Positions 2,467 through 53,722 of a stretch of DNA of 64,000 nt are shown piece by piece. The position numbers and the translations under genes are program-made. The stretch comes from Candidatus Saccharimonadia bacterium. Lineage in GTDB: Bacteria > Patescibacteriota > Saccharimonadia > Saccharimonadales > JALRHH01. The notes beneath the pieces were generated by a model. The model did no database searches. It was not told the origin of the DNA and worked only from the letters and a program-made list of their open reading frames with translations. Every line of letters begins with the position of its first letter. Within the stretch, counting starts at the first letter, position 1. Location: positions 236,020-300,019 of the forward strand of contig JALRHH010000001.1 in NCBI GenBank assembly GCA_023253175.1, given 5' to 3'.

Positions 2467-2543
2467 TGGCAGGACATACAGGACTTGTTTCGCAACCGCA
2501 CTTTGCCAATTCTCGACTTTAATCTACCGCTAGCTAAGGACAT
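2467..2543 (-). pseudogene. degenerate tRNA-Trp-like footprint, putative left attachment scar
   Basis: tggcagg-acat-acaggact-tgtttc-gcaacc here versus tggcagg-ggtg-acaggact-cgaacct-gcaacc at the tRNA-Trp 3' end (14278 onward). A D-arm-like ctaccgctagc lies further on. No acceptor stem is possible because AGGACAT is a direct repeat at 2471 and 2537. Confidence 0.4.
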
Positions 2544-2582
2544 ACTGCAACGCCACGCCTTAGCCTATGATTTAGAGTAAGC

Positions 2583-3008
2583 CTATTCAGCCAGTGATTG
2601 TAATAGTTTTAATTCGTGGACTAGTTGGTCGGGGTACTTTGCTAAGTCAATCTCAATCCAAGAGTTAAAAGCATTATGTTCATTTAGGGCTAAGCGTTCT
2701 CCGCTATAACAATCGTCGTCAAACCATAGAAAGGGTGTATTGAAGTCGATAGCCTCTGTTTTTGCTAATCCCCAAGTAACTGGCTTAAACTTCTCTAGAT
2801 ACGGTCGTAAATCATCATCAGTTGCTCGCAAAACGTATTCTATTGCGTGAGCTGTAGTGCCGTCCATACAGTGAGTAGTAAGCCAATACACCTCGAAGTT
2901 GTCTACTGCATACTTGATAAACTCGCTCGCACCAATTGCGAGGTTTTCCTCATTTGCTAGTAGGACACCGTCAATATCCAAGTACAGTCTAGGTTTCATA
3001 TTTACCAT
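2583..3008 (-). CDS. HAD-superfamily phosphatase-like protein (141 aa)
   Basis: N-terminal LYLDIDGVLL (DxDxV/T nucleophile motif) and a later acidic WFDDD motif. The small single-domain size is typical of phage/plasmid HAD proteins. Confidence 0.6.
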   Translation of the reverse strand: MVNMKPRLYLDIDGVLLANEENLAIGASEFIKYAVDNFEVYWLTTHCMDGTTAHAIEYVLRATDDDLRPYLEKFKPVTWGLAKTEAIDFNTPFLWFDDDCYSGERLALNEHNAFNSWIEIDLAKYPDQLVHELKLLQSLAE

Positions 3009-3031
3009 TATAAAGGCAGGGAGACACCCCC

Positions 3032-3239
3032 CCTACCTACTAAGTTTGCTTATTTTAGAACGACCATAAACGCACTACCTACCTACATTTTTGTCGCTAT
3101 CAAAAAATGGTTTGTTTTGCCCATTTCACCCAACAAAATCGAACAGGGGTGGACACAAAAATATCGCCCAACAATCAAAAAAGCTCACAACAGAGGTAGG
3201 TAGTTATAAGATTGTTGGATAAAATGCTAGTTTGTTGGG
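3032..3239. repeat. motif-dense intergenic region (CTACCTAC and CCCAACAA iterons in both orientations)
   Basis: CCTACCTAC at 3032..3040, CTACCTACCTAC at 3075..3086, inverted GGTAGGTAG at 3195..3203. CCCAACAA at 3129..3136 and 3167..3174, inverted TTGTTGG(G) at 3212..3218 and 3232..3239. Confidence 0.6.
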
Positions 3240-3240
3240 A

Positions 3241-3468
3241 CTATCTGCCTTGCTCATTACGAATATTCGTATTTGCAAACCCTCGTTTAGCCATAGCCTC
3301 GTCAAAAGTTTTGTCCATATAGAATAGGTCGCCGAGCCAGCCCATCAGTAAGTAGTTAGCACTAATACTTCGTCCGATTGCACCCTTGCCGTTGCCGAGA
3401 TACCAGCGGTTAATCGGTAGTATGAAACTACAGGCAGTTAGTATTTTGTATGTTTTTCGGTCTTTCAT
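3241..3468 (-). CDS. TM2-domain-like small membrane protein (75 aa)
   Basis: INRWYLGNGKGAIGRS...GWLGDLFYM resembles the TM2 pattern (h-R-F/W-Y-L-G ... W-h-h-D). Confidence 0.5.
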   Translation of the reverse strand: MKDRKTYKILTACSFILPINRWYLGNGKGAIGRSISANYLLMGWLGDLFYMDKTFDEAMAKRGFANTNIRNEQGR

Positions 3469-3511
3469 TTAAGCGTTCCTCGCTTTAGTTGATATGACCG
3501 TTGAAAATGCT

Positions 3512-3544
3512 CTAAATAAAAAGGGACACCGCCAACGGGTGTCT
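3512..3544 (-). terminator. intrinsic terminator downstream of the ATPase gene
   Basis: On the reverse strand: GACACC-CGTTGGC-GGTGTC hairpin followed by CCTTTTTATTTAG. Confidence 0.55.
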
Positions 3545-3710
3545 AGCCTGTTTGTTCCGCAATAAGTTTTAGCTTACTGTTTCGGGCGATGCCCCTTTCT
3601 AAAGCTAAAAATCATTACGGCAAAAAAAGCCGAGTGATGGTTATTGCGTATTAAACAAGCTAGACAATCTGATTATATCAAAAACAAGACAAATCTAATT
3701 TAGTAAGTGG

Positions 3711-5873
3711 CTATTTAGAGCCCAGGGTACTAACTCTATTGTATAAGTCCTTTAACTCGACATCGGACATATCGAGGATAGGCTCGTACATAAACGAGTT
3801 GATGTGTATATTCTGTGGCGTAATAAGATTAACTTTCTTGATAACGGCAATCTCTTCGTCTTTTGTAGGATTATCTGTAATGTACCTATCAGCTAGTTTA
3901 GCGGTTTGGTTTTTTGAGATTGACTCGACAAAAGCAGTATCGTTAATCTCGTTAATCATAAACTTCTCAGCCTTTAATCTAATTGCTACTGAAAGTACGA
4001 TTTTATTCTCAAGACCAAGAGAGCCGTTTTTGGATAGTAGAGTATCGGCGGTTTCCGTGAATAGGTCGGCAACAATCTTGTTCTCGTCAGATACTGTAAC
4101 GTCTTTGTTGAAGACGTCTTTGATAATATCTTTTACATTTTTAATGGTTATGGTTTCAGTATCTTTTTTGATATGTAAAGTAGAGGTTAGTAGGGTAAAG
4201 TCTGGGGCGTCCTCGCCTTTTGTGTACTCCACGATGTTGCGTACAAATGGTATTAGAGCTAATAGCTTAGCGTTCTCGGCTGTATTTTCTAGGAAATGCT
4301 TAAACGGATTGTTAATATACTCAGCCACAACTAGGTCGATACCGTCAGTCTTTTTATTGACCATTAGACAGTGCTTGTATGGTACGTATCGGCTCTGAAT
4401 TGTCCTAAAGAAGTCGAAGTTATGAGTTAGTATTATCTGGTAAAAGTTGTCTAGCTCAGCCGTGTCTTTTAAGTACTCGATAATTGCGTACTTATTTTTA
4501 TAGTCAAATGAGTCAGCGATATCATCAACGATTAAAAGTGTCTCCTCGCCTAAATCTTTCCTTGCCTCTATTTCAAACAGTACATTTAGTATGTAGAGTG
4601 CCTTTCGTTCGCCCGTACTCAGGACTTGTAGTAGCTCGTCTCGCTTGACGAGCTTTTTACTCTCCTCGTCTCTAAACTCGAAACTCAGTGAGGGAAGTAA
4701 GCCGTCTAGAATAACGTCGCTTTGATTTTCGACGCTCAATACAAACGGAACATTAAAGCGTGAGTTAAACACATCTACAACCTCAGCCCACCTAGTACGT
4801 TCTTGGTTGGCTTGCTCACGTATATCGTCTAATTCTTTCTTTGCGTCATTATGGGCTGTAATTAGGTTGTTAAAATCAGCTAGGCAAACCTTAAAGTAGT
4901 CTATCCAAATACGTTGCTTGAAGTAGTTGATATTAGCCAGTTCGGGTATAAGCTCTTTATGCTCGGTAATGTAATCCCTAAACTCTCGAACCTCGTTATT
5001 GCTAGTTAGTTTCTTATCTAACTTATCGAAAGCTTTACGAAGTTTCTCGTCTTTGAGTATCTCCTGTAGTTCGTCCTCGATAACTTTCTTTAGGTCAGCC
5101 TCAGAACTAATCTCACTTTTGGCAGTACCGTCAGAGAACGAGACAGTATGTGAGGCGTCAAAAAAGCCGTTTTGTACTAATGTTTTGGCGATTGTAGAGG
5201 CGTTGGTATGGTTGAATACGCCTTTACGAAAATATTTGGACTGTTCAACAAGTTCGTCATAGCGAGTTATATACTCGTTTAGGTCAGCTTGCACTGCCTT
5301 ATCCGACAGGAGCTTAACGACTTTTTCGTTAAAAAGTTTGCTGTACGAAACCTCGTTTAAAACAGGGTCTTTACCGTCGTTAACTTCTTTTTCAACACGC
5401 TGTACCGCCTCAAGAAACTTACCCTTAGTACTCATTATGACCTCGGATACTTCGTCGTCTATCCCTTTTGCTAGACCAGAGGGGGCTTTAAGTTTCTTTA
5501 CCAATTCGTCCTCTAGAGTTTTGATATTGAGCCAGATTTTGTCGTACTTATCCTTTAGCTCTTTATTTACCAATAATGTAGACGTTCTGCCAGAGGCGTA
5601 ATTTTCGTCGTATGGCTTTACTACGAAAACAGCACCAGAATCTAGCTCATTACCGTTTTCATCTGTTATCTCTCTGACCGTCTCACGCTCTGTAAAAATC
5701 ATATCTTTAGAGTCGTTACCGTCGCCGAAATCTCCAAAAGTCTTAGTAAATGACGTTTTCATCGAGCCATTAGTGGCGTAAATTGAGTACGTCTTTGTTT
5801 TATCGAAGTCAAACGTATGTTCAAGCTTCCTTATGCCGTAAGTGTTCTCTAGCTTGATGTTGAGCTTTTTCAT
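3711..5873 (-). CDS. RloC/PrrC-like (AAA_13-type) coiled-coil ABC ATPase, 720 aa
   Basis: Walker-A-like YATNGSMKTS. Long charged helical insert. ABC signature LSTGERKAL plus Walker B LLIVDDIADSFD plus ILTHNF (H-loop). C-terminal IPFVRNIVEY resembles the Arg-x3-Glu motif region of PrrC/RloC. No CxxC zinc hook. Divergent from the RM operon. Confidence 0.65.
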   Translation of the reverse strand: MKKLNIKLENTYGIRKLEHTFDFDKTKTYSIYATNGSMKTSFTKTFGDFGDGNDSKDMIFTERETVREITDENGNELDSGAVFVVKPYDENYASGRTSTLLVNKELKDKYDKIWLNIKTLEDELVKKLKAPSGLAKGIDDEVSEVIMSTKGKFLEAVQRVEKEVNDGKDPVLNEVSYSKLFNEKVVKLLSDKAVQADLNEYITRYDELVEQSKYFRKGVFNHTNASTIAKTLVQNGFFDASHTVSFSDGTAKSEISSEADLKKVIEDELQEILKDEKLRKAFDKLDKKLTSNNEVREFRDYITEHKELIPELANINYFKQRIWIDYFKVCLADFNNLITAHNDAKKELDDIREQANQERTRWAEVVDVFNSRFNVPFVLSVENQSDVILDGLLPSLSFEFRDEESKKLVKRDELLQVLSTGERKALYILNVLFEIEARKDLGEETLLIVDDIADSFDYKNKYAIIEYLKDTAELDNFYQIILTHNFDFFRTIQSRYVPYKHCLMVNKKTDGIDLVVAEYINNPFKHFLENTAENAKLLALIPFVRNIVEYTKGEDAPDFTLLTSTLHIKKDTETITIKNVKDIIKDVFNKDVTVSDENKIVADLFTETADTLLSKNGSLGLENKIVLSVAIRLKAEKFMINEINDTAFVESISKNQTAKLADRYITDNPTKDEEIAVIKKVNLITPQNIHINSFMYEPILDMSDVELKDLYNRVSTLGSK

Positions 5874-5983
5874 TAACTTTATTATACCCGATTTTGACGC
5901 CGTATTATTGTTATGCTTGAGCTTTTTGTGTAATATAATGGTAGGAAATGTTAAGTCAAAGGGTATGAGGAAAAATTAAAGAC

Positions 5984-7210
5984 GTGGACGACCTATTAAC
6001 TATTAGTGAAGCTTGCGACATCTTGAAAGTCCACCCTAACACACTTAGAAATTGGGACAACCAAGGCGTACTAAAGGCTAAGAAAATTGGGACAAAGGGC
6101 GTAAGGCGTTATTCAAAAGACGACTTGTCGAACTTTATTAACAAAACATCGGCTAGCTATCGACCACGGGTATTGGACTTATTCTCTGGTTGCGGTGGGC
6201 TTTCTTATGGTCTAGCTAAGGCTGGCTTTGATATTGTTGCTGGCGTTGATAATTGGGCAGACGCTTTAGTTACCTTTGAGCGTAACCACCCAGGAGCTAA
6301 ATCGGCACTTGTGGATTTGGGTAACTTTGACCCTGACGATATAGAAAAAATTGCTGGTTCTGATATAGACGTTGTTGTAGGTGGCCCGCCTTGCCAAGGC
6401 TTTTCTATCTCTGGTAAACGCAATCCTGACGACCCTCGAAATAAGCTCTACATAGGGTTTGTAGGTGTTGTAGCTCACTACAAACCAAAAGCCTTTATCT
6501 TGGAAAATGTACCTAATCTTATCTCTATGGCAGGGGGCAAGGTTAAAGACGAAATTATTAAAGAGTTTTCGGCACTAGGGTATAACGTTCAATACAGAGT
6601 GTTACTCGCCTCTGATTACGGAGTGCCCCAAAATCGTAAAAGGGTTGTGTTTGTAGGCGTGAGGGACGACTTAGAGTTTAATTATCCAGTCGCTACTTTT
6701 GCTGACGAAAAGCGTACTACGTCAGACGCAATTTCCGACCTTACGGAAGATAGTCTGGACGAGGGTGCTACCAATAAAAACCCAGCTCTTACTGAGTACC
6801 AGAAAATTATGCGTAAGAATACAGATAGAGTTTTTAATCACGAGATAAGTGAACACAGTGAGCAAACAGTATCTACTATCGCTCTCGTACCCGACGGTGG
6901 TAACTATAAAGATTTACCTGAGCACTTAAAGAATATCCGAAAACGTAATATTGCGTGGACACGCTTTGGTAGCTTTAAGCCGAGCAATACAATAGACACA
7001 GGGCATCGCCACCACTTCCACTACAAGTTTAACCGCATACCAACAGTAAGAGAGTCGGCAAGGCTACAATCTTTCCCTGACGACTTTATATTTTATGGCT
7101 CAAAGACAAGTCAATATAAACAAGTCGGTAATGCCGTGCCACCAATACTCGCAGAGGCTATTGGTCTTGAATTAAAGAAAACACTAGACTCTGCTAAAGG
7201 AGAGGCGTAA
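5984..7210 (+). CDS. DNA (cytosine-5) methyltransferase with N-terminal MerR/excisionase-type HTH
   Basis: GTG start. HTH LLTISEACDILKVHPNTLRNW. m5C motifs: FSGCGG (I), GGPPCQGFS (IV), ENV (VI), QNRKRVVFVG (VIII), GNAVPP (X). Confidence 0.9.
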   Translation: MDDLLTISEACDILKVHPNTLRNWDNQGVLKAKKIGTKGVRRYSKDDLSNFINKTSASYRPRVLDLFSGCGGLSYGLAKAGFDIVAGVDNWADALVTFERNHPGAKSALVDLGNFDPDDIEKIAGSDIDVVVGGPPCQGFSISGKRNPDDPRNKLYIGFVGVVAHYKPKAFILENVPNLISMAGGKVKDEIIKEFSALGYNVQYRVLLASDYGVPQNRKRVVFVGVRDDLEFNYPVATFADEKRTTSDAISDLTEDSLDEGATNKNPALTEYQKIMRKNTDRVFNHEISEHSEQTVSTIALVPDGGNYKDLPEHLKNIRKRNIAWTRFGSFKPSNTIDTGHRHHFHYKFNRIPTVRESARLQSFPDDFIFYGSKTSQYKQVGNAVPPILAEAIGLELKKTLDSAKGEA

Positions 7211-8640
7211 TGGCGGAGTATAAGATACCAGAGGAGTTTTACTACAGGATACACCACGCCCGTCCACGCTTTAAGAGCGACGTTGAGAGCGTACTTTTGT
7301 TTATGGCTGGCGAAATATCACGACTTGACCCAGCACCACGTAGCCCTTTTAGGGAGCAACTAAACTCTGCTATTAGGCTTTATCCAGGTAACGGTTCGGC
7401 AACTGAGAAAACTATAGACAACTGGCGAACTGAAATCTCTAGCCTCTTTGGTCTAATTGAACGTGAGGGAGAATTACAAAAAGCCGGACGTATGGCTTTC
7501 TTGCTTAGTGAGAACCAGGATTTAGTAGAGTTCTTTAGGTACTTCCTGTACTACTTCCAGTATCCAGGTGGACATTTGAAGTCTCAAGAGTCCCTAAAAA
7601 TGATTAACGCTGGCATAAAGTTTAAGCCTGCTAAGTACCTAATAGAGGTGTTGATTGAGGGTCAGAAACTAACCGAGGACGGCAAGTTCGGTATCACTAA
7701 AGCCGAGGCAACTCACTGTATCTTTAATGACCTACGTATTACAAGGGACGGTCAATCTCCTAAGATAACGGCGTCTCAAATAATAGCTCGTCAAAAAACG
7801 GGTGTTGAGTACGATAACGATGGCGATGTAACCCGATACGCAGGCGACATCTTAGACTATATGGAGCTAGCCGACCTTGCCCGTCAGCGTCCAAACTACA
7901 AGTACTACCTCAATATGGCTAACCTAGATGTGCTACAAGCTTTCGTATCTAGCGATAACTGGTTTAACTCATACGACGCTCTTTACGGTCAAAAAGACGT
8001 TACGCCTGCTGATGTAGCAGTCTACCTTGAGGATTGGTTCAAGTACGTTAATAACAAGCTCGACTCGACTATATTTGAGGCTAATATCCTCTCTATCATA
8101 GAGGACGCTAGCGAACAGACCACCACAACACCTAAGCAATCAGAGTTTATCGCCGAAGTGCTTGAAAGAATTAGAGCTAAACGAGCGTCTGAGCAGACAA
8201 TTAGGACTAAGGAGATTGGCGACGTTGGCGAGACTATCGTTATAGAACACGAAAAGAACCGCCTTACAAAACTAGACCGTACCGACTTGCTACACCTTAT
8301 CCAAAAGATACCAGAGATTTACGCTGTTGGTTATGACATCGGCTCATACGAGGGCGTAGGCACTACTCGACGCTTTATCGAAGTCAAGACAACCGTCAGT
8401 CGAGGCAAGATACACACCACTAACTTCCATATGACACCTAGTGAGTGGAGTGCGTCAGATACACTGGGTCAAACGTACTTTATCTACCGCCTAGCTATAT
8501 CGTCAGAAAGTGTATCGCTATTTGTAATTCAAGACCCAGTCGGTAAATACAAGCAAAGTCTAGTTGATATGATACCAAGGGACGGAGCTGACATTCGTTA
8601 CACAGAAAAATCAGGAGTATACGAGGAGTTATTGGTATGA
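7210..8640 (+). CDS. putative restriction endonuclease with C-terminal DUF3883-type PD-(D/E)xK domain
   Basis: C-terminus GDVGETIVIEHEKNRL..GYDIGSY..FIEVKTT..FHMTPSEW..YFIYRL matches the DUF3883 pattern (D...E-x-K). Start overlaps the M1 stop (TAATG) and stop overlaps the M2 start (ATGA). Confidence 0.6.
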   Translation: MAEYKIPEEFYYRIHHARPRFKSDVESVLLFMAGEISRLDPAPRSPFREQLNSAIRLYPGNGSATEKTIDNWRTEISSLFGLIEREGELQKAGRMAFLLSENQDLVEFFRYFLYYFQYPGGHLKSQESLKMINAGIKFKPAKYLIEVLIEGQKLTEDGKFGITKAEATHCIFNDLRITRDGQSPKITASQIIARQKTGVEYDNDGDVTRYAGDILDYMELADLARQRPNYKYYLNMANLDVLQAFVSSDNWFNSYDALYGQKDVTPADVAVYLEDWFKYVNNKLDSTIFEANILSIIEDASEQTTTTPKQSEFIAEVLERIRAKRASEQTIRTKEIGDVGETIVIEHEKNRLTKLDRTDLLHLIQKIPEIYAVGYDIGSYEGVGTTRRFIEVKTTVSRGKIHTTNFHMTPSEWSASDTLGQTYFIYRLAISSESVSLFVIQDPVGKYKQSLVDMIPRDGADIRYTEKSGVYEELLV

Positions 8641-9704
8641 GCAAAGTCTATAAGGTAGCGTCGTTTTTTACGGGGCTTGGTGGTATGGACTTGGGTGGCG
8701 AGGGCGATTTTGATTTTCTCGGGCAACACTACAAGAAAAATCCACTTAAAACAGTTTACGCTATGGACTTCGACAAGCCCATTTGCGACATCTACAACGC
8801 TAATTTTGGTATAGAGTGTCAGCATAAGGATATCAACTTAGTCTCTGCCGACGAGATACCAGACCACGACATATTAACGGGTGGTTTTCCTTGCCAGTCT
8901 TTCTCCGTAGTGGCACAAAATCCGAAACGTTTAGGCTACAAGGACGACAAAAAAGGTAAGCTATTTTTCGAGATGTGTCGGATACTCAAAGAGAAAAAAC
9001 CTGCTGTATTTGTTGCCGAAAATGTAAAGGGTCTCCTGTCAGCCAATAAGGGCGAGGCGTTTCCACTCGTGATACAGGAGTTTGAAAATGCTGGCTATCA
9101 CGTTAAATATAAGGTACTTAACGCCTCTCATTTTGGCGTCCCTCAAAAGCGTGAGCGTGTCTTTATTGTCGGCTTTAGAGATAAACAGGCTTATGACGCC
9201 TTTGAGTTCCCCGAGGCAGTAACGGTAGATAAGCCTCGTATTATCAAAGAGATTATCGACCCGGAGCATACTATTGAGGACAAGTATTATTTTAGTGAGC
9301 GAGCCGTTGAGGGTATGAAAGCCACTAAACACGCTAAGACTATGAACAAGGGACGAGCACAAGATGTTAATCTACCTAGCAATACCGTAGGAGCACACTT
9401 GGCTAAAGTGAGCCTCAATAGCACCGACCCCGTATTGTGTATTGACGGTCGTTACCGTATGTTTACTCCACGAGAAGTAGCCCGTATACAGTCGTTTCCC
9501 GAGTCGTTTAAGCTACCTGGCTCTAGGACTACAAACTACAAGGCTCTAGGAAACGCTGTAGCTCCTGTAGTTATGTGGCACGTTACTCAGAGCATAATCA
9601 CGGCTCTAAAGGCAGTAGAAAGCCCTAAAACAGCTCAAGTAACAGAACAGGACGCTGTAGAGATTGTGGACGAGGGGCTAAAGCTAGAGCCACTTGTTGC
9701 TTAG
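8637..9704 (+). CDS. DNA (cytosine-5) methyltransferase, second copy
   Basis: FFTGLGG (I), GGFPCQSFS (IV), ENVKGL (VI), QKRERVFIVG (VIII), GNAVAP (X). Confidence 0.9.
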   Translation: MSKVYKVASFFTGLGGMDLGGEGDFDFLGQHYKKNPLKTVYAMDFDKPICDIYNANFGIECQHKDINLVSADEIPDHDILTGGFPCQSFSVVAQNPKRLGYKDDKKGKLFFEMCRILKEKKPAVFVAENVKGLLSANKGEAFPLVIQEFENAGYHVKYKVLNASHFGVPQKRERVFIVGFRDKQAYDAFEFPEAVTVDKPRIIKEIIDPEHTIEDKYYFSERAVEGMKATKHAKTMNKGRAQDVNLPSNTVGAHLAKVSLNSTDPVLCIDGRYRMFTPREVARIQSFPESFKLPGSRTTNYKALGNAVAPVVMWHVTQSIITALKAVESPKTAQVTEQDAVEIVDEGLKLEPLVA

Positions 9705-10561
9705 GGCTTTAGTTTAGTACGTAGATTGCCACTTACGGCAGTCAAAGCTTTGAGAGCCGATTGTAACTCACTTTTTAGGTAAGTTACTTTTTGACCTTGA
9801 GTAGTACTGTCTAAGCCAAGATTAGCCGTATACTTTGCGTCGATAATACCGCCGTTGTGCTGTTCGATGTGGCGTTTCTCGAAAACAACCCTCATATCCT
9901 GTAAGTTTTGGCTATCCAAGCCCTCGAGTATTTCTATCCCTTGCTTATCTCTAAAGTATGCTTCTGACAGGCTGATGTTCTGAAAATTAATCTTTTTGTC
10001 TTTGCTAGCATAAAAACGACATAGGTTCTGAAACGCTATAACAACGTCATTGTATATTTGGCGTAAGCCCCTGTCTGTGTCTAGCTCTTTCTCTATAATG
10101 GCTAGGTTTGCGTCTAAAATCTTTACGTCCTCTGTACCGCAAAATGGACAGCGTGAGGCGATGCCGTAAATCTCGTATAAGCTCTCACAAGATGAGCAGA
10201 CCATATCGGTTGGTATCTCGGATTGTACTAGTACGGGTTGAGCGTCGTACCGTATTCTCGCTGGCTTAAACTTAACATTTTTAGAGCCTCTTAACCCACG
10301 AGCCAAGCTATTTTGTAGCTCTTTCATAACATCATATTTAATTTGGCGGAGACCCTCTTGAGTAGCATAGTCAAACTGTTCTGGTACGTTAAAATCTGGC
10401 AAACGACCACTCTTATTGCAATATGGACAGTGGATAGTGTCTGGAAAATCTTTGTCGACCGACCTAATACCAAACTTGATTGAGCAATCAGGACAAAGAC
10501 GGTGGGTGTAGCCCTTGCCGTCGGCTGGTATTGCTATCTCGTAATGCGACTTTAGTGCCAT
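9701..10561 (-). CDS. double zinc-ribbon protein with C-terminal R-x4-H (HEPN-like) motif
   Basis: CPDC..CPYC and CSSC..CPFC cysteine pairs. C-terminal helical region contains FEKRHIEQHNGG (R-x4-H). Convergent with M2, overlapping it by 4 nt. Confidence 0.55.
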   Translation of the reverse strand: MALKSHYEIAIPADGKGYTHRLCPDCSIKFGIRSVDKDFPDTIHCPYCNKSGRLPDFNVPEQFDYATQEGLRQIKYDVMKELQNSLARGLRGSKNVKFKPARIRYDAQPVLVQSEIPTDMVCSSCESLYEIYGIASRCPFCGTEDVKILDANLAIIEKELDTDRGLRQIYNDVVIAFQNLCRFYASKDKKINFQNISLSEAYFRDKQGIEILEGLDSQNLQDMRVVFEKRHIEQHNGGIIDAKYTANLGLDSTTQGQKVTYLKSELQSALKALTAVSGNLRTKLKP

Positions 10562-10605
10562 TAGTTATTACCCTCACAAGCTAGACTTATTATACAATAA
10601 TTAAA

Positions 10606-11157
10606 GTGAAAGACGATGTAATGAAAGATGACCGTAAGCGGTGGCATAATGAGGACGGATTAGAGTTTGTTACTCCTAGTCCTCGTCAAAATGGTATCGC
10701 CTCTAGCTATGGCATTATCGAGAGTACATACGATTATGACGACAAACTCTACACGCTGACTTATGACGAGGATATAAACAAGCTACTCATAAACCGCATT
10801 GGGATAAAGAGCTTTCAAATAAAAAATCCTGACGTAGAGCAAGTGTTTTTAGATGTTTTCACCAAGCTAAAAGAGGCGAACAAGTATAAAACCAAGTTTG
10901 ACCACGACTACGTTACTAAGACTGAGGTAGAGGTTAAAGCCAGCCAAGCTCACGTCGTCATAAACAACCTAAAAATACCCAAGCCACTCCGTAACATTAT
11001 GTTTAACTCGTCCGACGGTGGCAAAGTTCTGCACGTCCAAACAGTCGTAACTAAGCGATTAGCAATCAAAAATAATCTTGATATCAAAGCTACTAACGAG
11101 TGGCTAACTGACTTACTCCGTAAAGACCCTAAGTTGCGAGTACCAAAGACGTACTAA
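10606..11157 (+). CDS. hypothetical protein (183 aa)
   Basis: ORF only; no recognisable motif. Divergent from 9701..10561. Confidence 0.45.
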   Translation: MKDDVMKDDRKRWHNEDGLEFVTPSPRQNGIASSYGIIESTYDYDDKLYTLTYDEDINKLLINRIGIKSFQIKNPDVEQVFLDVFTKLKEANKYKTKFDHDYVTKTEVEVKASQAHVVINNLKIPKPLRNIMFNSSDGGKVLHVQTVVTKRLAIKNNLDIKATNEWLTDLLRKDPKLRVPKTY

Positions 11158-11204
11158 TAGCTACTAATTAACGTTAATAAACCGTCAGTCTATGGCGTTT
11201 TTAA

Positions 11205-11387
11205 GTGTACCTTGAGGCTATGAGCAATCCGTCAGCAAAACAAGTTGCCGAGCAAGTCAGTCCTACTGACCCAATGCTACGTTTGACTGAGTTACTGATA
11301 AGAATTGACCGCCGAGAAAATGTGATTAAAGACGAGAACGATGTTAATGATAACCGAGATACAGATAACACCAGTCAAGCCCAATAA
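11205..11387 (+). CDS. small hypothetical protein (60 aa)
   Basis: ORF only; acidic C-terminus; overlaps the SpoVG-like start. Could be a small DNA-binding/RDF-type protein, but nothing supports that. Confidence 0.3.
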   Translation: MYLEAMSNPSAKQVAEQVSPTDPMLRLTELLIRIDRRENVIKDENDVNDNRDTDNTSQAQ

Positions 11388-11649
11388 CGGTCTAATTGGT
11401 TTTGCTAGTTTTGTGCTTTATGGAGCTGTTTATTGTAGCTCTGTCGGCATATACACAAGACTAGACGGCGGTTATCGACTTACATACCCCACTAAGCAAG
11501 TTATGGGGCGTGATATGGGCATTTTCCACCCGATTAACAAAGAGCTAGGTTTAGAGATTGAAAAAGCGGTTACAGCCGTATACGACGATGTAATGAGGTT
11601 AAAAAATGCTAGATACGGTAGTGCTGTCGCTGGACATATCGGAGTTTAG
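11347..11649 (+). CDS. SpoVG-like nucleic-acid-binding protein
   Basis: MITEIQITPVKPNNGLIGFASFVL...YPTK...GIFHPINKELGLEIEKAV parallels SpoVG (MEITDVRL...AIASI...DIAHPIN). Confidence 0.6.
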   Translation: MITEIQITPVKPNNGLIGFASFVLYGAVYCSSVGIYTRLDGGYRLTYPTKQVMGRDMGIFHPINKELGLEIEKAVTAVYDDVMRLKNARYGSAVAGHIGV

Positions 11650-12745
11650 AATTATGTCGACCCACTACGGCAGGTGGTCGCCCGATATAACTAACTACAT
11701 TAAACCACCTTACGTAAAACTAGGAGGTCGGAAGTTTGCCGTCTCTACTCGAACACCTACACGAAACGACGAACTAAATGGTATCTACCTACCACGTCTC
11801 AAGCTTATTAAATCGACTAGGACTGGGGGTTACTCTACTCGGTTATACGTAGAGTTCTCAGCACCTAAAATCGTCTTTAATAATAACTTTGATGAGTTAG
11901 CCGACAGCGACTTCGATAACGTCTGTAAACAGCTCTCGAAAGCCCTGCGTCGCCTAGGTGTTGCCGTAGATAAAGAAACCATAAAGACAGCCCAAGTTAA
12001 TACCGTGCACTACAGCAAAAACGTGATTTTAACTGACGGCAAACTGGCTAAAATGTTCGTCAGAGAGCTAGCCAAGGCAAACATCTCGACACGTCGTCGT
12101 AGCAAGACTAAAACCTACGGCAACGACGGCGAGGCTATGTACTTTCATACAAGCAAGTGGGCGTTTGTCGCTTACGATAAACTCGCAGAGTTTCGACGCT
12201 CTCGAAATAATAAAAAGGAGCTACTGGAGAAAGACTACTATTGTCAGTTATCTCTCTTTGATGAGTTTACGCCAGCTACACCCTTTGAAGTCATACGACT
12301 TGAGGCTCGCTATACTGACCGTAGGACTATCAAAACCAACCTAAAGCGAGCTGGAGTAACATTTAGCGAGGAGCTGCCGTTTATTGAGCTATACTCCGAG
12401 GATACGGCAAAAAAGCTACTACTTTATGAGTTAAGCCAGTTAGAAACAGCAACACCCGATATTCTATCGACCGAGCGAGACTTAGACCGCTTTATTGACA
12501 ATTTACTAGCTAACCAAGCCAAGCCCGACCGTATCGTTTACGCCGTCGGTGTCAAAAAAATATTAGAGCAATATGGTAGTCGTGGGGCGAGGTCAAGGAT
12601 ACACGCTAGCTCTAGTCAATGGTCGAGACTAATAGCTAAAACAAACAGCCTTGGTTTCACTCGCCAAGATAACGATACGACAACCACGATACGACAAAGT
12701 ATCGAGGCGTTTCGTCGTGTCAAATTAACTAACTACAAGGAGTAA
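11606..12745 (+). CDS. Rep_trans / Phage_CRI-like rolling-circle replication initiator
   Basis: N-terminal MLDTVVLSLD. GEAMYFHTSKWAFVAYDK matches the Y-x-G-x3-S-x5-Y-D-K signature. FEVIRLEARY matches the R-h-E-h-R strand. Confidence 0.55.
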   Translation: MLDTVVLSLDISEFRIMSTHYGRWSPDITNYIKPPYVKLGGRKFAVSTRTPTRNDELNGIYLPRLKLIKSTRTGGYSTRLYVEFSAPKIVFNNNFDELADSDFDNVCKQLSKALRRLGVAVDKETIKTAQVNTVHYSKNVILTDGKLAKMFVRELAKANISTRRRSKTKTYGNDGEAMYFHTSKWAFVAYDKLAEFRRSRNNKKELLEKDYYCQLSLFDEFTPATPFEVIRLEARYTDRRTIKTNLKRAGVTFSEELPFIELYSEDTAKKLLLYELSQLETATPDILSTERDLDRFIDNLLANQAKPDRIVYAVGVKKILEQYGSRGARSRIHASSSQWSRLIAKTNSLGFTRQDNDTTTTIRQSIEAFRRVKLTNYKE

Positions 12746-12753
12746 ATAGTATA

Positions 12754-14289
12754 ATGAAAACAATGAAAAAAGATAGCGAGGTTAAACCACGAAAAGCGAT
12801 TATTTTCGCTCGGGTATCGACAGCTCGCCAAGAGAAAGAGGGCTTATCCCTCAAAGAGATACAACTACCTCTAGCTTACGAGTACGCTAAAAATCACAAT
12901 ATCGAGGTGGTCGCCGAGTACGCTATTAGCGAGACTGGTAGCGAGTACAAACTACGAGCCAAGTTCAACGATATGATTGCTTTCGTAAAACGTCGTAAGG
13001 ATATTACCGACATAATCTCGTTTAGGGTAGACCGTATCACTCGTAACTTTAAAGACGCTGTCGCTATCGACGACTTACGAACCAGCTACGGCAAGAACAT
13101 ACACTGCATTGACGACCGCTTAGTCTTGACCGAGGATAGTACATCAAACGACATCACTCAATGGGATATGAAAGTGCTTTTTGCCAAGCAGTTCCTCAAC
13201 CGTGTTAAAGAGGACGGTAATAATACCAAATACCGAAAGCTGGAGCGTGGCGAGTTGCCTTGGGGTACGCCGTATGGCTACAAGCACCACACTATCAGCC
13301 CTCAAAATAAAACTGTTATAGCCGAGGATTTTAAGGCTACTATCGTCCGAAAAATACACACTCTTTACTCGACTGGTTCTTACTCGTTAGAGACGCTAGC
13401 GAGAGCCATCAACAAAGAGTACGGCACTAAGTTTTATAAAAGTTCAATCCACCGTATTCTGACCGACAAGTTCTATATCGGCATTATGACCGATAAAAAA
13501 TCAGGGAAAGAATACCCTCATAACTACGAGCGTCTAGTCGGTTTTGATATGTTTGAGCTAAACCAGCAAATCATAGAGGGACACAATGTAAAACCTCGTA
13601 AATATGCTGGCATACCGTCAATCTACAGAGGTTTAATGCGTTGTAGCCATTGTGGTTGTACTATTACGTCAGAGTTAAAGAAAAAGACCCAAAAGAACGG
13701 TGTAAGACGTGAGTATATGTACTACCACTGTACCAACAAAAGGCGTCAGCACACCTCGCCTATCCAGTACATCAGCGAGAAAGAGTTAGACGGCGTGTTT
13801 AAGTCTCTGCTCGACAACTTTGCCAATATACCAAAGGACGAGATAGAACGTATCAAAGAGACGCTAAATAGCACTCACGACGCAAAGAATAAGTTTCAAG
13901 ACGACCAGCTTTCAGAGCTTAACGTCAGGCGGTCGCAACTGACGGCTCGTATCCGCAGGACATACGATATGCTTGCTGACGGTAGTATTACCCCAGAAGT
14001 TTATGAGGAAAACCGACAGCGTTACGAGGACGAGTTAAATGATGTTAAACGAAAAATCGACCGCTTAGATACAGCCGACAAAGAGTTCTGCATTACCGCC
14101 TCGTATCTGTTACGATTGTTTGAGAACGCTGGAAAAATCTACGAGGTTGCTGACGAGGACGAAAAACGGCAAATTATCGGTTTGATAAGCTCGAACCTCG
14201 AATTAGACAACAAAAACCTTGATTTCAATCTAAAAGAACCCTTCGCTACAGTCCTAAAACTGGCTAAGAGTTCTTTATGGCAGGGGTGA
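12754..14289 (+). CDS. large serine recombinase (integrase)
   Basis: Resolvase catalytic domain AIIFARVSTARQ...SFRVDRITRN, recombinase domain, zinc ribbon CSHCGC..YYHC, C-terminal coiled coil. Stop TGA at 14287..14289 lies inside the tRNA-Trp 3' end. Confidence 0.9.
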   Translation: MKTMKKDSEVKPRKAIIFARVSTARQEKEGLSLKEIQLPLAYEYAKNHNIEVVAEYAISETGSEYKLRAKFNDMIAFVKRRKDITDIISFRVDRITRNFKDAVAIDDLRTSYGKNIHCIDDRLVLTEDSTSNDITQWDMKVLFAKQFLNRVKEDGNNTKYRKLERGELPWGTPYGYKHHTISPQNKTVIAEDFKATIVRKIHTLYSTGSYSLETLARAINKEYGTKFYKSSIHRILTDKFYIGIMTDKKSGKEYPHNYERLVGFDMFELNQQIIEGHNVKPRKYAGIPSIYRGLMRCSHCGCTITSELKKKTQKNGVRREYMYYHCTNKRRQHTSPIQYISEKELDGVFKSLLDNFANIPKDEIERIKETLNSTHDAKNKFQDDQLSELNVRRSQLTARIRRTYDMLADGSITPEVYEENRQRYEDELNDVKRKIDRLDTADKEFCITASYLLRLFENAGKIYEVADEDEKRQIIGLISSNLELDNKNLDFNLKEPFATVLKLAKSSLWQG

Positions 14290-14353
14290 CAGGACTCGAA
14301 CCTGCAACCAACGGTTTTGGAGACCGCTACTCTACCAATTGAGCTACACCCCT
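14278..14353 (-). tRNA. trnW: tRNA-Trp (anticodon CCA), CCA-3' encoded
   Basis: Reverse strand AGGGGTG-TA-GCTC-AATTGGTA-GAGT-A-GCGGT-CTCCAAA-ACCGT-TGGTT-GCAGG-TTCGAGT-CCTGT-CACCCCT-G-CCA. All four stems pair. Confidence 0.9.
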
Positions 14354-27993: not shown

Positions 27994-28707
27994 GTGGGGG
28001 TATATAGCAATATTCAAATCCGTGAGGCACTAGAAACTGGGCACATTGTTTGCGTGCCATTCAATCCAAAACATGTCGCCCACGCCAGTCTTGATGTAAC
28101 ACTTGGTTATTACTACTACCGAACTGGCCAGTCAAAGCGCGGCTTTGTCTATAATCCATTTAGCGAAACAGATACAAAGCGCTACTTTGGCGAAGTCCAC
28201 CAGGCCGTCCCACACCAGGACTGGTGCAACGCCAATAACGTACAGCTTCAGGAAAACATCCCTGCAGACCACCCGGTCATCCCACTCCGTCCCGGAGAGC
28301 GCATTCTCGCGCACACCCACGAATTCTTTGGGATCAAGCCACCTGGCGCCTACCAGGTAAAAGCCCGTTCAAGCTGGGGCCGTAATGGTGTTGCTGTTTG
28401 TTTCGACGCGGGCTGGGTCGATCCAGGTTACATCAACCGCCTGACGCTTGAAATCTACAACCTAAACGAACACGAAACAGTGCTGCTGCCTGTTGGTGAG
28501 CGCATTGCCCAAGCTGTATTCCTCGAGACCGGTGAAGTAGAGGGCAGCTATGGTGAAGGCCGTGACAATGGAATGAGCGGCAAGTACCAACAGGGAACTG
28601 ATCTTGACGAAATTATTACCAACTGGCGCCCCGAAGCAATGCTTCCACGTGCATACAAAGACAGCCGCGTCCTTCCAGCGGAGATTAAAGGTTTAAAAGC
28701 ACGATGA
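27994..28707 (+). CDS. dcd: dCTP deaminase family protein
   Basis: KARSSWGRNGVAVCFDAGWVDPGYINRLTLEIYNLN..GERIAQAVF. ORF track starts at 27922 (TTG); the GTG at 27994 after GAGGGG gives a typical N-terminus. Confidence 0.8.
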   Translation: MGVYSNIQIREALETGHIVCVPFNPKHVAHASLDVTLGYYYYRTGQSKRGFVYNPFSETDTKRYFGEVHQAVPHQDWCNANNVQLQENIPADHPVIPLRPGERILAHTHEFFGIKPPGAYQVKARSSWGRNGVAVCFDAGWVDPGYINRLTLEIYNLNEHETVLLPVGERIAQAVFLETGEVEGSYGEGRDNGMSGKYQQGTDLDEIITNWRPEAMLPRAYKDSRVLPAEIKGLKAR

Positions 28708-31043
28708 GCAAAGAACGAGCACCAGCACCAGAAAAAGGTACATTCCTTGTTATAGAAGGTACTGACGGTTCCGGCAAAGGAACGCAGTTTAATCTCTTAG
28801 TAGAGCGCCTCACAAAAGAAGGCTACGACGTTGCTACCTTTGATTTCCCCCAGTACGACCAACCATCAAGCTTCTTCGTTAAAGAGTACCTAAATGGAAA
28901 CTATGGCTCTGCAGAGGCAGTTGGACCGTATACCGGTTCTCTTTTCTACGCGCTTGACCGCTACCAGGCAGCACCAGCTATTCGCGAAGCGTTGGAAGCT
29001 GGAAAGGTCGTGCTTGCAAACCGCTTTACAGGATCAAATATGGGTCACCAGGGAACCAAATTTGCCAATCACGAAGAGCGTCGTGGCTATTTTATCTGGC
29101 TTGATAATCTAGAATTCCAGATGCTTCACATACCTCGCCCTGACAAGTCGTTCGTGCTCCGTGTTCCAGCAGCAACCGCACAAAAGCTTGTTGATCAGAA
29201 AGCAGAACGATCATACACCGACAAAAAGCGTGATCTGCACGAAGCAGACCTGTCGCATCTAGAACGTGCCGTAGAAGTCTACGATGACCTCTGCAACTTA
29301 TTCCCTAAAGATTTCCAGCGCATTGACTGTGTTCGTGGGGGTGAACTCCTGTCAATTGATACGATTCAGGAAATGCTGTGGCAAACCGTAAAACCACTTC
29401 TACCAAATAAGCCTAAGAAGTCAAAGACAGCGGCAGTAACTAAAAAATCGGCCATAAGTGATGAAAATCCTTATGTAAAGAAGACCGAGACAGGATACAA
29501 AATAACTTCTGCCGGTAAAGCCTTCTTGGATGAAGCTGTTACCAGCACGGATGGCGATGTATACGCTTTCAACGAAACACTCAGCCCAACAACTGTTGCA
29601 GCCGCAATGGCGAGGCTAAGCCGCCGTGGCGATGATATGCGTATCACTATTTTGGATGAGTTTGCACACGCAATGGGCAAGGACGAAAAGCTACTACAGC
29701 GCGTTATTACCGCATATGGTGACGACTCTGTGCAGCAGCTCGTCGGACTGCAATTCGTCGTCGAAAATGCTTCTAATCTTTTGACTAAGAAACTAGAGTG
29801 GGGACGTCTTGCAGCCTACCTAGAACAATCCACACGCTACATCTACTTTGACCAAAAGGATGACAACGGCAAGTACAAGTACCACGTCCCAGATCATTTT
29901 GATGATGACACAACAGCTATTTACGTTGATGCCATGGATACTATTTTTGATAACTACTCGGATATGGTCCACAAACTGACCGAATATGTTGCGCATAATT
30001 CAGATACCCCAGAAGCAGAGCGTGACATTGCATGGAAGGGCGCTGTTCGGGCACAGGCATGTGATGCGGTTCGTGCGGTACTACCAGTCGCAACTAAATC
30101 TACAGTGGGTATTTATGCCTCTGGTCAAGCAACAGAGAACCTGATTATGAATCTACTCGCCGACGAGCTACCAGAAGCACGTAAAAAAGGCCAAGAAATT
30201 CTTGAGCAGGCCAGAAAGATCATTCCAACGTTCCTAGAGCGAGCCGACAAGCCAGAGCGCGGCGGTGCAACAATTGCCTACCGCGCCAATACTAAGAATG
30301 CTGTAGCGGAGCTTGCCAAGGAACTTCTGCCGACTAACCACGCAAGTGACACTGACGCAGTTACATTGACTAACTTCTGGCCACGCAACGAACTCGACCT
30401 TGTGCCTGACATGCTCTATGAACACAGCTCACTCCCACTCAATGAACTACAGAATGAAGTAAGTAAACTTAGCTACGACAAAAAGGAAGACGTATTCAAG
30501 GCCTACATTGGCGAACGACTGAACCGACGCCACAAGCCAGGCCGCGCACTTGAAAAAGCCCACTATTCATGGGATCTGGTCTGTGACTACGGTATTTTCC
30601 GCGATTTGCAGCGTCACCGTATGGTTGACGACCTAAACTGGCAGCTTCTAACACCGCGCTATGGTTATGATATTCCTGCGCTCATCGATGAAGCTGGTTT
30701 GACCGATCAGTTTGAGGCATGCTTTGACCTGAGTCTTAAGCTTTACAGCGTACTTCAGGAAAAGGGCTATGACCTAGACGCGCAGTATGCAACACTACTC
30801 GGTCACCGCATGCGCTGGAAGATTACCTATAATGCACGTGAGGCGTTCCACTTCCACGAACTACGTACCAGCCCTCAGGGTCACCCAGGCTACCGCAAGT
30901 TAGTGCTCGAGATGCACGAAAAGCTCGCGGAGGTGCATCCACTCATGGCTGAATCCATGAAGTTTGTGAACACCGGCGAAGACGAGACATTGACCCGTCT
31001 TGCAGCCGAACGCTACACGCAGTACAAACTGAACAATCTATAA
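28704..31043 (+). CDS. tmk-thyX: thymidylate kinase fused to tandem-domain flavin-dependent thymidylate synthase ThyX (779 aa)
   Basis: N-terminus LVIEGTDGSGKGTQ (Tmk P-loop). ThyX half 1: AAAMARLSRR...LEWGRLAAYLEQSTRY (RHR degraded to WGR). ThyX half 2: FRDLQRHRMVDD...TPRYGY and FHFHELRTSPQGHPGYR. ATGA overlap with dcd. Confidence 0.8.
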   Translation: MSKERAPAPEKGTFLVIEGTDGSGKGTQFNLLVERLTKEGYDVATFDFPQYDQPSSFFVKEYLNGNYGSAEAVGPYTGSLFYALDRYQAAPAIREALEAGKVVLANRFTGSNMGHQGTKFANHEERRGYFIWLDNLEFQMLHIPRPDKSFVLRVPAATAQKLVDQKAERSYTDKKRDLHEADLSHLERAVEVYDDLCNLFPKDFQRIDCVRGGELLSIDTIQEMLWQTVKPLLPNKPKKSKTAAVTKKSAISDENPYVKKTETGYKITSAGKAFLDEAVTSTDGDVYAFNETLSPTTVAAAMARLSRRGDDMRITILDEFAHAMGKDEKLLQRVITAYGDDSVQQLVGLQFVVENASNLLTKKLEWGRLAAYLEQSTRYIYFDQKDDNGKYKYHVPDHFDDDTTAIYVDAMDTIFDNYSDMVHKLTEYVAHNSDTPEAERDIAWKGAVRAQACDAVRAVLPVATKSTVGIYASGQATENLIMNLLADELPEARKKGQEILEQARKIIPTFLERADKPERGGATIAYRANTKNAVAELAKELLPTNHASDTDAVTLTNFWPRNELDLVPDMLYEHSSLPLNELQNEVSKLSYDKKEDVFKAYIGERLNRRHKPGRALEKAHYSWDLVCDYGIFRDLQRHRMVDDLNWQLLTPRYGYDIPALIDEAGLTDQFEACFDLSLKLYSVLQEKGYDLDAQYATLLGHRMRWKITYNAREAFHFHELRTSPQGHPGYRKLVLEMHEKLAEVHPLMAESMKFVNTGEDETLTRLAAERYTQYKLNNL

Positions 31044-33524: not shown

Positions 33525-33553
33525 TTGTTATTTAAGGAGTAATCAAGTATAAT
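33525..33553 (+). promoter_or_regulatory. rplJL promoter
   Basis: TTGTTA-17 nt-TATAAT. Confidence 0.55.
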
Positions 33554-33562
33554 TACTCCCAA

Positions 33563-33674
33563 GTTGCCAAAGACAGTGACTGACCATAGGTCTTAATTTG
33601 TCACCGAGGTACAAACAATCTCTTTTAGAGCGTTTGAACATCTTTGGAAACAGAGATGTTTTTTGTTTGGCAAC
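33563..33674 (+). promoter_or_regulatory. rplJ leader with long-range helix and terminator-like hairpin (L10-leader-type attenuator candidate)
   Basis: GTTGCCAAA 33563..33571 pairs with TTTGGCAAC 33666..33674. Hairpin AACATCT/AGATGTT (33637..33660) is followed by TTTTGTTT, which overlaps the 3' arm of the long helix. Confidence 0.4.
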
Positions 33675-53647: not shown

Positions 53648-53722
53648 TAGGGCGTCGCCAAGTGGTAAGGCACTGGTTTTTGGTACCAGCATTCGGGGGT
53701 TCGAATCCCTCCGCCCTAGCCA
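53648..53722 (+). tRNA. trnQ: tRNA-Gln (anticodon UUG), CCA-3' encoded
   Basis: TAGGGCG-TC-GCC-AAGTGGTAA-GGC-A-CTGGT-TTTTGGT-ACCAG-CATTC-GGGGG-TTCGAAT-CCCTC-CGCCCTA-G-CCA. The U1:A72 pair fits bacterial tRNA-Gln. Confidence 0.9.

Follow-up and report, generated by a model that had tools for sequence, protein, structure and literature searches.

Analysis of a 64,000-nt window of Candidatus Saccharimonadia bacterium (contig JALRHH010000001.1) revealed that one of its genes, encoding an ATP-binding cassette (ABC) ATPase of 720 amino acids, is a bona fide member of the catalogued, uncharacterised PDC-S46 (phrog_38705) family, and the evidence is consistent with a protein that may well serve as a stand-alone anti-phage or anti-mobile-element ATPase-gated effector, probably an RNase. 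Coordinates refer to the window, that is, to the whole stretch analysed, and ATPase residues are numbered in the 720-residue protein. The match to the PADLOC profile of PDC-S46 was full-length, with profile positions 1-718 of 719 aligned to residues 1-717 (894.9 bits, E=1.2e-269), and a search of the PHROGs returned phrog_38705, annotated as ‘unknown function’ (E=9e-212, 1-717 of 723). The window protein has the same length and the same single-gene architecture as this family, and no difference was found. A Pfam search gave only a sub-threshold SMC_N match, a profile that matches 40 of 40 family members, all below the gathering score; weak RecF profile matches were also seen in the Pfam and NCBIfam searches, and NCBIfam gave no useful match. 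The PDCs are 145 candidates that were singled out by guilt-by-embedding, their genes lying inside BREX, DISARM or type I restriction-modification (RM) systems (Payne et al., 2024, preprint). A search of the literature, main texts and supplements included, found neither PDC-S46 nor any homolog accession named, and public records name the members ‘hypothetical’, ‘AAA family ATPase’ or, by a legacy name, ‘phage infection protein’.

The family comprises at least 6,563 clusters at 90% identity and at least 1,264 clusters at 50% identity, the latter from a search with the C-terminal domain. Members occur in at least 429 species genomes of bacterial phyla, candidate-phyla-radiation lineages and archaea, covering Saccharibacteria, Proteobacteria, Bacteroidota, Cyanobacteria, Actinomycetota and Firmicutes, and also the archaeal Methanohalophilus; across phyla their identity to the window protein is 42-50% and their length is nearly constant. 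They were present on 29 of 72,556 plasmids and in 1 of 50,697 phage records. Among 5,426 complete Escherichia coli genomes there were six intact copies, and about 40 further genomes carried IS1-truncated copies, which keep only the first 366 nt of the gene. The E. coli homolog WP_096983205.1 of strain E8 also matches PDC-S46 (E=2.4e-274), and a weak match of the same protein to PADLOC PDC-S06 (E=2.5e-11, residues 416-587) points to a possible sister family.

The AlphaFold2 (AF2) model of the ATPase, with a predicted local distance difference test (pLDDT) score of 84.8, consisted of an ABC N-lobe (residues 1-100), a helical insert (104-372), an ABC C-lobe (377-516) and an all-helical C-terminal domain of about 200 residues (523-720). 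The split ABC-type head, with its insert and C-terminal domain, had been proposed in an original prediction made from the letters of the window, and it was borne out by the model and by Foldseek. The motifs quoted there were all located, in the head (YATNGSMKTS, 32-41; LSTGERKAL, 418-426; LLIVDDIADSFD, 446-457; ILTHNF, 481-486) as well as in the C-terminal domain (IPFVRNIVEY, 541-550; TLHIKK, 565-570; QNIHINSF, 687-694). Whole-model Foldseek matches were to the heads of SMC, Rad50, RecF, retron PtuA and Lamassu LmuB (E=5e-7 to 1e-4), including the PtuA structures 9e8z, 9n69 and 9kjx and the LmuB structure 9hqu. Among PDB sequences, the family profile had Smc4 as its sole match (E=0.049), with a marginal alignment of the Smc4 head to residues 418-489, and a single-sequence search with the ATPase returned no relative. 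Conservation was assessed in 195 distinct homologs with 42-100% identity to the window protein. In the stretch that holds the ABC signature, the Walker B/D-loop and the H-loop, the residues S419, G421, E422, D450, D451, S455, D457, H484 and N485 were invariant, and the invariance of the ABC motifs together with the Foldseek E-value of 5e-7 to SMC/Rad50 heads places the ATPase head in the SMC/Rad50/RecF-like ABC clade. Weak matches to a Bro-N domain in 12 of 40 members lay on the Walker B strand (residues 435-497), far below threshold, and were discarded as spurious.

The Walker A motif, which lies between strand 28-32 and helix 39-51 of the AF2 model, does not follow the canonical GxxxxGK[ST] pattern and reads A-x-N-G-x-M-K-T-S, with Met in place of the Gly before the P-loop Lys, as originally pointed out. 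N35, G36, M38 and K39 were each found in 194 of 194 aligned homologs and A33 in 185 of 195, and S41 was invariant. Because M38 is present in every one of the 194 homologs, the exchange of Gly for Met is a family hallmark under selection and not degeneration. No conserved Q-loop Gln was found between Walker A and the insert among the 195 homologs, S98-T99 being conserved there instead. Since the Met-containing P-loop is invariant and a conserved Q-loop Gln is absent, the motif pattern suggests a slow nucleotide-gated switch and not a motor.

The insert, of about 270 residues, contains a conserved patch (F220-N221-H222...N235-F237-F238...H242) in which F220, F238 and H242 are present in all 195 homologs. 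It had been described as a long, charged helical coiled-coil insert lacking the CxxC zinc hook; its helical nature and the absence of the hook were both upheld, as CxxC occurs anywhere in the protein in only 7 of 195 homologs and is never conserved, but the modelled insert is made of a small beta hairpin and about 15 short helices. A long coiled coil of the Rad50/RloC type is thus absent, the two longest helices having just 27-29 residues.

The C-terminal domain, when modelled alone, gave a pLDDT of 89.7 and a pTM of 0.88, and it was found in one architecture only, always at the C-terminus, in at least 1,264 representative clusters. About 20 of its polar residues, two His and two Arg among them, are invariant in the 195 homologs, a pattern that resembles an active site more than a surface for binding. 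The conserved positions are R545-N546-x2-E549, T563-S564-x2-H567, E622, K624, R632-x3-E636 and Q656, followed by the loop T685-P-x-N-I-H690-x-N-S-F-M-Y-E697-P-x2-D701, in which N692 is invariant. R545, N546, H567, K624, R632, E636, H690, E697 and D701 are likewise invariant and E549 is present in 187 of 195 homologs; the C-terminal Arg-x3-Glu and His residues singled out in the original prediction are thus real and conserved. The distance from R545/E549 to H567 is x17, and that from R632/E636 to H690 is x53. An internal duplication of the domain, which would account for two R-x3-E...His sets, was considered and rejected (hhalign probability 0.2%). The C-terminal profile found no relative among PDB sequences, and a fold search of PDB and BFVD gave no significant match.

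The genomic context of the family was surveyed in 80 diverse homolog loci, with crude calling of open reading frames (ORFs), and DNA methyltransferases (MTases) were tallied in 79 of them with hidden Markov models for two classes only, 5-methylcytosine (m5C) and N6-gamma, so that the tally is a lower bound on RM linkage. No obligate partner was found, since no neighbour family occurred in more than 8 of the 80 loci, a figure reached by the commonest neighbour cluster. An MTase lay within 3 kb in 18 of 79 loci and within 10 kb in 25, and MTase density was 5.0-5.4 per 100 kb within 3 kb against 1.0-1.2 farther out, a contrast drawn within the homolog loci alone. The MTase was upstream of the homolog in 15 of the 18 loci and co-directional in 11; the divergent ATPase/MTase layout of the window is a minority arrangement. 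The anticipated association of homologs with RM genes was therefore recovered, and the linkage is frequent in the family but facultative.

Near neighbours with RM functions comprised N6 and m5C methylases and Eco57I-type, HsdS, ResIII, HpaII, DpnII and type ISP enzymes, and the others included nSTAND3, TIR, Schlafen, AAA_15/21/23/27 ATPases, RmuC, DUF2130, resolvases, transposases and toxin-antitoxin genes. In L089, a homolog with 58% identity comes after genes for a type IIG-like MTase and a PLD-SNF2 helicase, with start/stop coupling, and the chromosomal copy of E. coli E8 (L100, 8998-11184) directly follows an HmaB-like methylase and an HmaA-like SNF2 helicase and precedes a pglX remnant. 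Another copy stands among TIR, Schlafen-helicase, MazG, PIF1 and CTD10/MC6 genes, and further copies adjoin toxin-antitoxin modules, plasmid rep genes or an antirestriction gene. A homolog on the Providencia plasmid pPROV188-1 (L085, 6998-9184) is found upstream of traM in an F-like leading region, flanked on one side by an hsdM fragment and on the other by an antirestriction gene; such leading-region contexts are more usually tied to anti-defence genes. A DUF2130 gene, an occasional companion, is immediately beside the homolog in L089 (8176-9411, start/stop-coupled) and in L099 (4697-5950), and DUF2130 was also seen in 2 of 149 immediate neighbours. The earlier proposal of a defence candidate was upheld by the PDC-S46 match and by these RM- and defence-rich loci, but its restriction-guard part did not prove general, 61 of 79 loci having no detected MTase within 3 kb. 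Neither of the outcomes named beforehand as refuting the original prediction was observed, these being best matches to a non-nuclease family that lacks an Arg/Glu/His cluster, or homologs unconnected with RM genes or defence islands.

Membership among the anticodon nucleases PrrC and RloC, to which the ATPase had been likened, was not supported by the comparison with known systems. The ATPase had no match to Pfam PF13166 (AAA_13) at E up to 1, and only 2 of 40 relatives scored 32 bits, against a cutoff of 36, over model positions 338-604 of 713, in the ATPase lobe. No PrrC or RloC protein was present in the 1.6 Mb of examined loci. The published anticodon nuclease triad is Arg-x3-Glu-x31-His in PrrC and has a spacing of x36-52 before the His in RloC; the C-terminal R-x3-E...His of the window protein thus bears a fair resemblance in form to this triad, with a spacing outside the published ranges. 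RloC is an anticodon nuclease that excises the wobble nucleotide and joins a Rad50-like ABC ATPase to a C-terminal nuclease. With RloC, the protein has in common that it is a stand-alone ABC ATPase whose lobes are separated by an insert and followed by a helical C-terminal domain, in which Arg-x3-Glu and His are invariant, and that its RM linkage is facultative (8 of 72 in the published RloC set, 18 of 79 within 3 kb for PDC-S46). It differs from RloC in having Met for Gly in Walker A, in lacking the AAA_13 match, the CxxC zinc hook and the long coiled coil, and in its His spacing (x17 or x53), and the C-terminal domains appear unrelated in sequence. With PrrC, it shares an ABC N-domain, a C-terminal R-x3-E...H, a DD-type Walker B and, in the window, RM linkage. 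PrrC cleaves the anticodon of tRNA-Lys and is kept silent by EcoprrI, an RM system of type Ic; it has about 400 residues and no large insert, and is found almost exclusively within type I RM systems, co-directional in hsdMSR. The window gene, in contrast, encodes 720 residues, diverges from a type IIS m5C system, seems to have a promoter and a terminator of its own and is not an AAA_13 member, and most PDC-S46 members have no detected RM neighbour, those RM partners that do occur being heterogeneous in type. By these comparisons the protein appears to behave more like RloC than like PrrC, being stand-alone with a facultative RM link, and it is a member of neither.

Two further groups were considered. 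The ABC-HEPN fusions of the APECO1_4465-like and ERFG_01251-like types (Anantharaman et al., 2013), which are found near RM genes and are carried by prophages or mobile islands, share the concept of an ABC ATPase joined to a C-terminal helical RNase-type domain, but they carry an Rx4-6H motif that PDC-S46 does not; this comparison was made from their published description. Septu/retron PtuA, Lamassu LmuB, Gabija GajA, PARIS AriA and OLD have the head fold in common with PDC-S46 but differ from it by an obligate partner or a fused TOPRIM/HNH nuclease, neither of which is recognisable in PDC-S46. The PADLOC models of Septu, Lamassu, Gabija, PARIS and OLD gave no match to the ATPase.

A defence role of the ATPase family is probable on this evidence, and the assignment of an RNase effector to its C-terminal domain is a tentative one that we regard as somewhat doubtful. 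In the mechanism proposed, the ATPase head and the insert would sense an infection- or DNA-related cue, nucleotide-dependent head engagement would draw two C-terminal domains together, and their pairing would switch on an effector site formed by the invariant Arg, Asn, Glu, His and Lys residues; the effector, probably a metal-independent RNase with a HEPN-like fold, would then lead to abortive infection or an arrest of growth. The family identity, domain anatomy, motif invariance, distribution, mobility and RM/defence context were established directly, and from them the defence function, the chemistry of the effector, its trigger and its activation by dimerisation are argued by analogy with RloC/PrrC and the ABC-HEPN fusions. 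In favour of a HEPN-like effector, the only compact Foldseek superpositions of the C-terminal domain were with five HEPN proteins (2q00, 2jpu, the HepT structures 6m6u and 6m6w, and 1wwp), whose HEPN status is borne out by the literature, at a root-mean-square deviation of 4-5 Å, TMt of 0.49-0.55 and a probability of 0.30-0.77, and R545 is followed by a polar Asn (N546), as is typical for HEPN.

Several results weigh against this reading. The 145 PDCs are catalogued as candidates, and a later preprint still lists them as ‘unvalidated’. No nuclease family was detected in the ATPase by Pfam, NCBIfam or PDB sequence profile. The superpositions with HEPN proteins are not significant (E≥1.4), and no Rx4-6H motif is found within residues 517-720, where R545-N546 has Y550 at +5 and not His. 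The invariant His-loop (residues 685-698) is the lowest-confidence part of the C-terminal model, and the P-loop Met could impair nucleotide binding. Some copies are also not obviously defensive in context, lying beside repABC or in a plasmid leading region with an antirestriction gene.

In the window, the ATPase gene belongs to an island whose genes, in plus-strand order, are orf141, orf75, the ATPase gene, M1-R-M2, a Zn-ribbon-like gene (PDC-M14A), small ORFs, a Rep-like gene, a large serine integrase gene and tRNA-Trp (Table 1). The same divergent ATPase/RM pairing was found in loci L001, which is identical to the window, L003 and L088. A second Saccharibacteria genome (L003:1512-13272) carries the same island genes in the same order, beside its own tRNA-Trp. 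Since the island proteins of the two genomes are 70-94% identical while the host proteins past the tRNA are 34-45% identical, and since the window ORFs left of ~2300 have no counterpart in L003, the island is a horizontally mobile unit of ~11.8 kb (~2500-14289) that is common to distant Saccharibacteria. The mobile-element carriage originally proposed is thereby sharpened to an island at tRNA-Trp. No convincing att-type direct repeats were found for the island, as is expected from a serine integrase. L088 is a variant in which a SLFN_AlbA_2 (Schlafen/AlbA_2) gene takes the place of the Zn-ribbon gene.

Table 1. Coordinates of the ATPase gene, its parts and the neighbouring island features in the window.
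Feature	Position	Strand	Basis or remark
PDC-S46-family ABC ATPase gene, whole coding sequence, 720 residues	3711..5873	-	ATG-start ORF; PADLOC and PHROG profiles; AF2 model pLDDT 84.8
Non-canonical Walker A, A-T-N-G-S-M-K-T-S, residues 33-41	5751..5777	-	Met for Gly before P-loop Lys
Helical insert between ATPase lobes, residues 104-372	4758..5564	-	Secondary structure of AF2 model; no CxxC
ABC signature LSTGE, Walker B/D-loop VDDIADSFD and H-loop THN, residues 418-489	4407..4622	-	Invariant residues
Family-specific all-helical C-terminal domain, putative effector, residues 517-720	3714..4325	-	Domain model and conservation
Promoter-like site TTGACT-16-TATATT toward ATPase gene	5932..5959	-	10/12 consensus match only; in 110-bp divergent intergenic region
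Terminator-like hairpin, ~170 nt past ATPase stop codon	3525..3543	-	Sequence match only
orf141, small gene downstream of ATPase	2583-3008	-	No Pfam match
orf75, small gene downstream of ATPase	3241-3468	-	75-77% identical in L003 and L088, 60% in L086
M1, m5C DNA methyltransferase with N-terminal helix-turn-helix (HTH; MerR/HTH_17)	5984..7210	+	PF00145 E=1e-79; HTH_17 E=4e-11
BpuJI-like type IIS restriction endonuclease (R)	7210..8640	+	BpuJI_N E=1.2e-94 over full 278-position model; NOV_C E=1.6e-11; PADLOC REase_II
M2, second m5C DNA methyltransferase	8637..9704	+	PF00145 E=6e-77
Zn-ribbon-like island cargo gene, 286 residues, second defence-candidate match	9701..10561	-	PADLOC PDC-M14A E=3.4e-14; 77% identical L003 copy
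Rep-like island gene	11606..12745	+	phrog_702 replication protein E=1e-4, weak; 71.5% identical L003 copy
Large serine integrase	12754..14289	+	phrog_95 integrase E=1e-56; 88% identical L003 copy, likewise beside tRNA-Trp
tRNA-Trp, right-hand island junction	14278..14353	-	ARAGORN; Rfam tRNA 70 bits

Of all the island genes, that of the ATPase has diverged furthest, with 70-71% amino acid identity compared with 93-94% for each RM gene and a nonsynonymous divergence (dN) of ~0.22 compared with ~0.04. Synonymous divergence (dS) is unequal among M1, R and M2 between L003 and L088, which marks the block as a mosaic, and dN/dS was uninformative on fast evolution as opposed to allele swapping: with synonymous sites saturated, the two explanations of the ATPase divergence are inseparable. 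The genes orf141 and orf75 accompany the ATPase in L001, L003 and L088, and the start of orf141 has a DxDGVL motif, giving it an HAD-phosphatase-like look. The Zn-ribbon gene is convergent with M2 and also has weak matches to Lar-like restriction-alleviation profiles. The remainder of the window is ordinary chromosome, where a 779-residue ORF at 28704-31043 (+) has PHROG matches to a thymidylate kinase-like (residues 9-208) and a thymidylate synthase-like (296-489) part, an unusual fusion, and where a ribosomal protein L10 leader (33549-33674, +; Rfam 63.5 bits) and a tRNA-Gln (53648-53722, +) were located.

The divergent pairing with a type II m5C M-R-M operon on the opposite strand, described in the original prediction, is present. 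By its profile matches, the block at 5984-9704 is assigned as a BpuJI-like type IIS M-R-M operon, in which BpuJI_N and a NOV_C/PD-(D/E)XK-type C-terminus are accompanied by two PF00145 methyltransferases. Two methyltransferases are expected for an asymmetric recognition site such as that of BpuJI. The BpuJI site CCCGT is not avoided (56 observed, 66 ± 8 expected). The terminator-like hairpin of the ATPase gene suggests that the gene is monocistronic, and no regulatory RNA was found by Rfam close to it. A TTGACTTAACATT block of the divergent intergenic region is conserved in L003 and L088. The region as a whole was at first taken as highly conserved, a candidate that was dropped: its 91% column identity is inflated by two near-identical sequences, and pairwise identities of 72-78% are unremarkable. 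An exact 11-nt direct repeat, TTGAGCTTTTT, occurs at 5860-5870, where it overlaps the ATPase start codon, and at 5917-5927, 57 nt upstream; both copies are kept in L003 and L088, and the repeat could serve the HTH-methyltransferase as an operator or could have arisen by chance.

The island arrangement bears on the reading of the ATPase as a PrrC-type guard, which would be silenced by contact with the adjacent RM system and freed as a suicidal tRNA anticodon nuclease upon phage anti-restriction. In its favour, three loci that have diverged deeply from one another (the window, L003 and L088) all retain the divergent adjacency to a BpuJI-like M-R-M operon, MTases are about 5-fold enriched within 3 kb and tend to lie upstream, a type IIG-like MTase shows start/stop coupling with the 58% homolog, PDC-S46 was first found embedded in RM, BREX or DISARM systems, and the R-x3-E...His motif is present. 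This pairing with the BpuJI-like RM type is, however, kept only in one Saccharibacteria island lineage, and no m5C or N6-gamma MTase was detected within 3 kb in 61 of 79 diverse loci; a 71% homolog has no RM system nearby, and where RM systems are linked, their types are mixed (type I, IIG, IIS and HmaAB-like). The ATPase is also outside AAA_13, its gene has promoter-like and terminator-like signals of its own while PrrC is nearly always inside a type I RM system, and the RM genes (93% identity) do not share the history of the ATPase (70%) inside the island. A guard of this kind is therefore improbable; it is possible in the Saccharibacteria island lineage, where the adjacency outlasts deep divergence, but not as a rule for the family.

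An SMC/Rad50-like nucleic-acid sensor with no nuclease of its own, in which the C-terminal domain and the insert would be binding or adaptor modules, was judged unlikely. Such a protein would act by DNA clamping, by ATP-dependent remodelling or by recruiting host or neighbour nucleases, in the manner of Lamassu LmuB, Septu/retron PtuA or Wadjet JetC, and it would suit the nearest structures, which are SMC, Rad50, PtuA and LmuB heads, the lack of a detectable nuclease family in the C-terminal domain, and the DUF2130, RmuC, Metallophos and helicase genes that occasionally adjoin. Known ATPases of this kind, however, have an obligate effector gene, whereas no partner occurs in more than 8 of 80 loci here; the ~20 invariant polar residues, with their two His and two Arg, are active-site-like, and there is no long coiled coil for DNA entrapment. 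The family might alternatively have a non-immune function in mobile-element maintenance, in repair of the RecF/RecN/SbcC type or in competition or anti-defence, and hitch-hike in variable regions, with which the weak RecF and SMC_N profile matches, the plasmid copies beside repABC or in an F-like leading region with an antirestriction gene and an hsdM fragment, the existence of a PHROG family and the legacy name ‘phage infection protein’ would agree. This explanation is very improbable: the distribution is patchy and rare (6 of 5,426 E. coli genomes with an intact copy, 29 of 72,556 plasmids, 1 of 50,697 phages) and thus at odds with a function at the core of mobile elements, some copies are disrupted by IS elements, defence genes and not repair genes make up the neighbourhood, and no Mre11/SbcD-type partner is conserved. 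A far-reaching form of the preferred reading, that of a defensive ATPase-gated effector, is speculative and rather doubtful: PDC-S46 would be an undescribed pan-prokaryotic single-gene immune module, in which a Met-P-loop, Q-loop-less ABC switch controls an unrecognised catalytic all-helical domain (a divergent HEPN with no Rx4-6H, or a new nuclease fold), and which has repeatedly been taken up at the end of methylase, or methylase and helicase, operons to back up restriction.

The locus of the window is itself ordinary for the family, which is large, conserved and mechanistically odd; PDC-S46 is among the larger uncharacterised single-gene defence candidates and is unusually conserved for an accessory gene. 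Because an intact E. coli homolog exists, the question of its function is directly testable. Should the protein prove to be a nuclease gated by its ATPase, the immune repertoire of ABC ATPases would gain a new effector domain, the family would offer a natural experiment on the effect of a Gly-to-Met P-loop in an ABC switch, and the concept of a defence that backs up restriction, known for type I systems (PrrC), would be widened to type II, IIG and Hma-like ones; compared with the characterised systems, PDC-S46 would be a variation on the theme of an ABC ATPase plus effector. For the Saccharibacteria, which are episymbionts with tiny genomes, the results reveal the exchange of a compact island that stacks an RM system, the ATPase and a further candidate gene.

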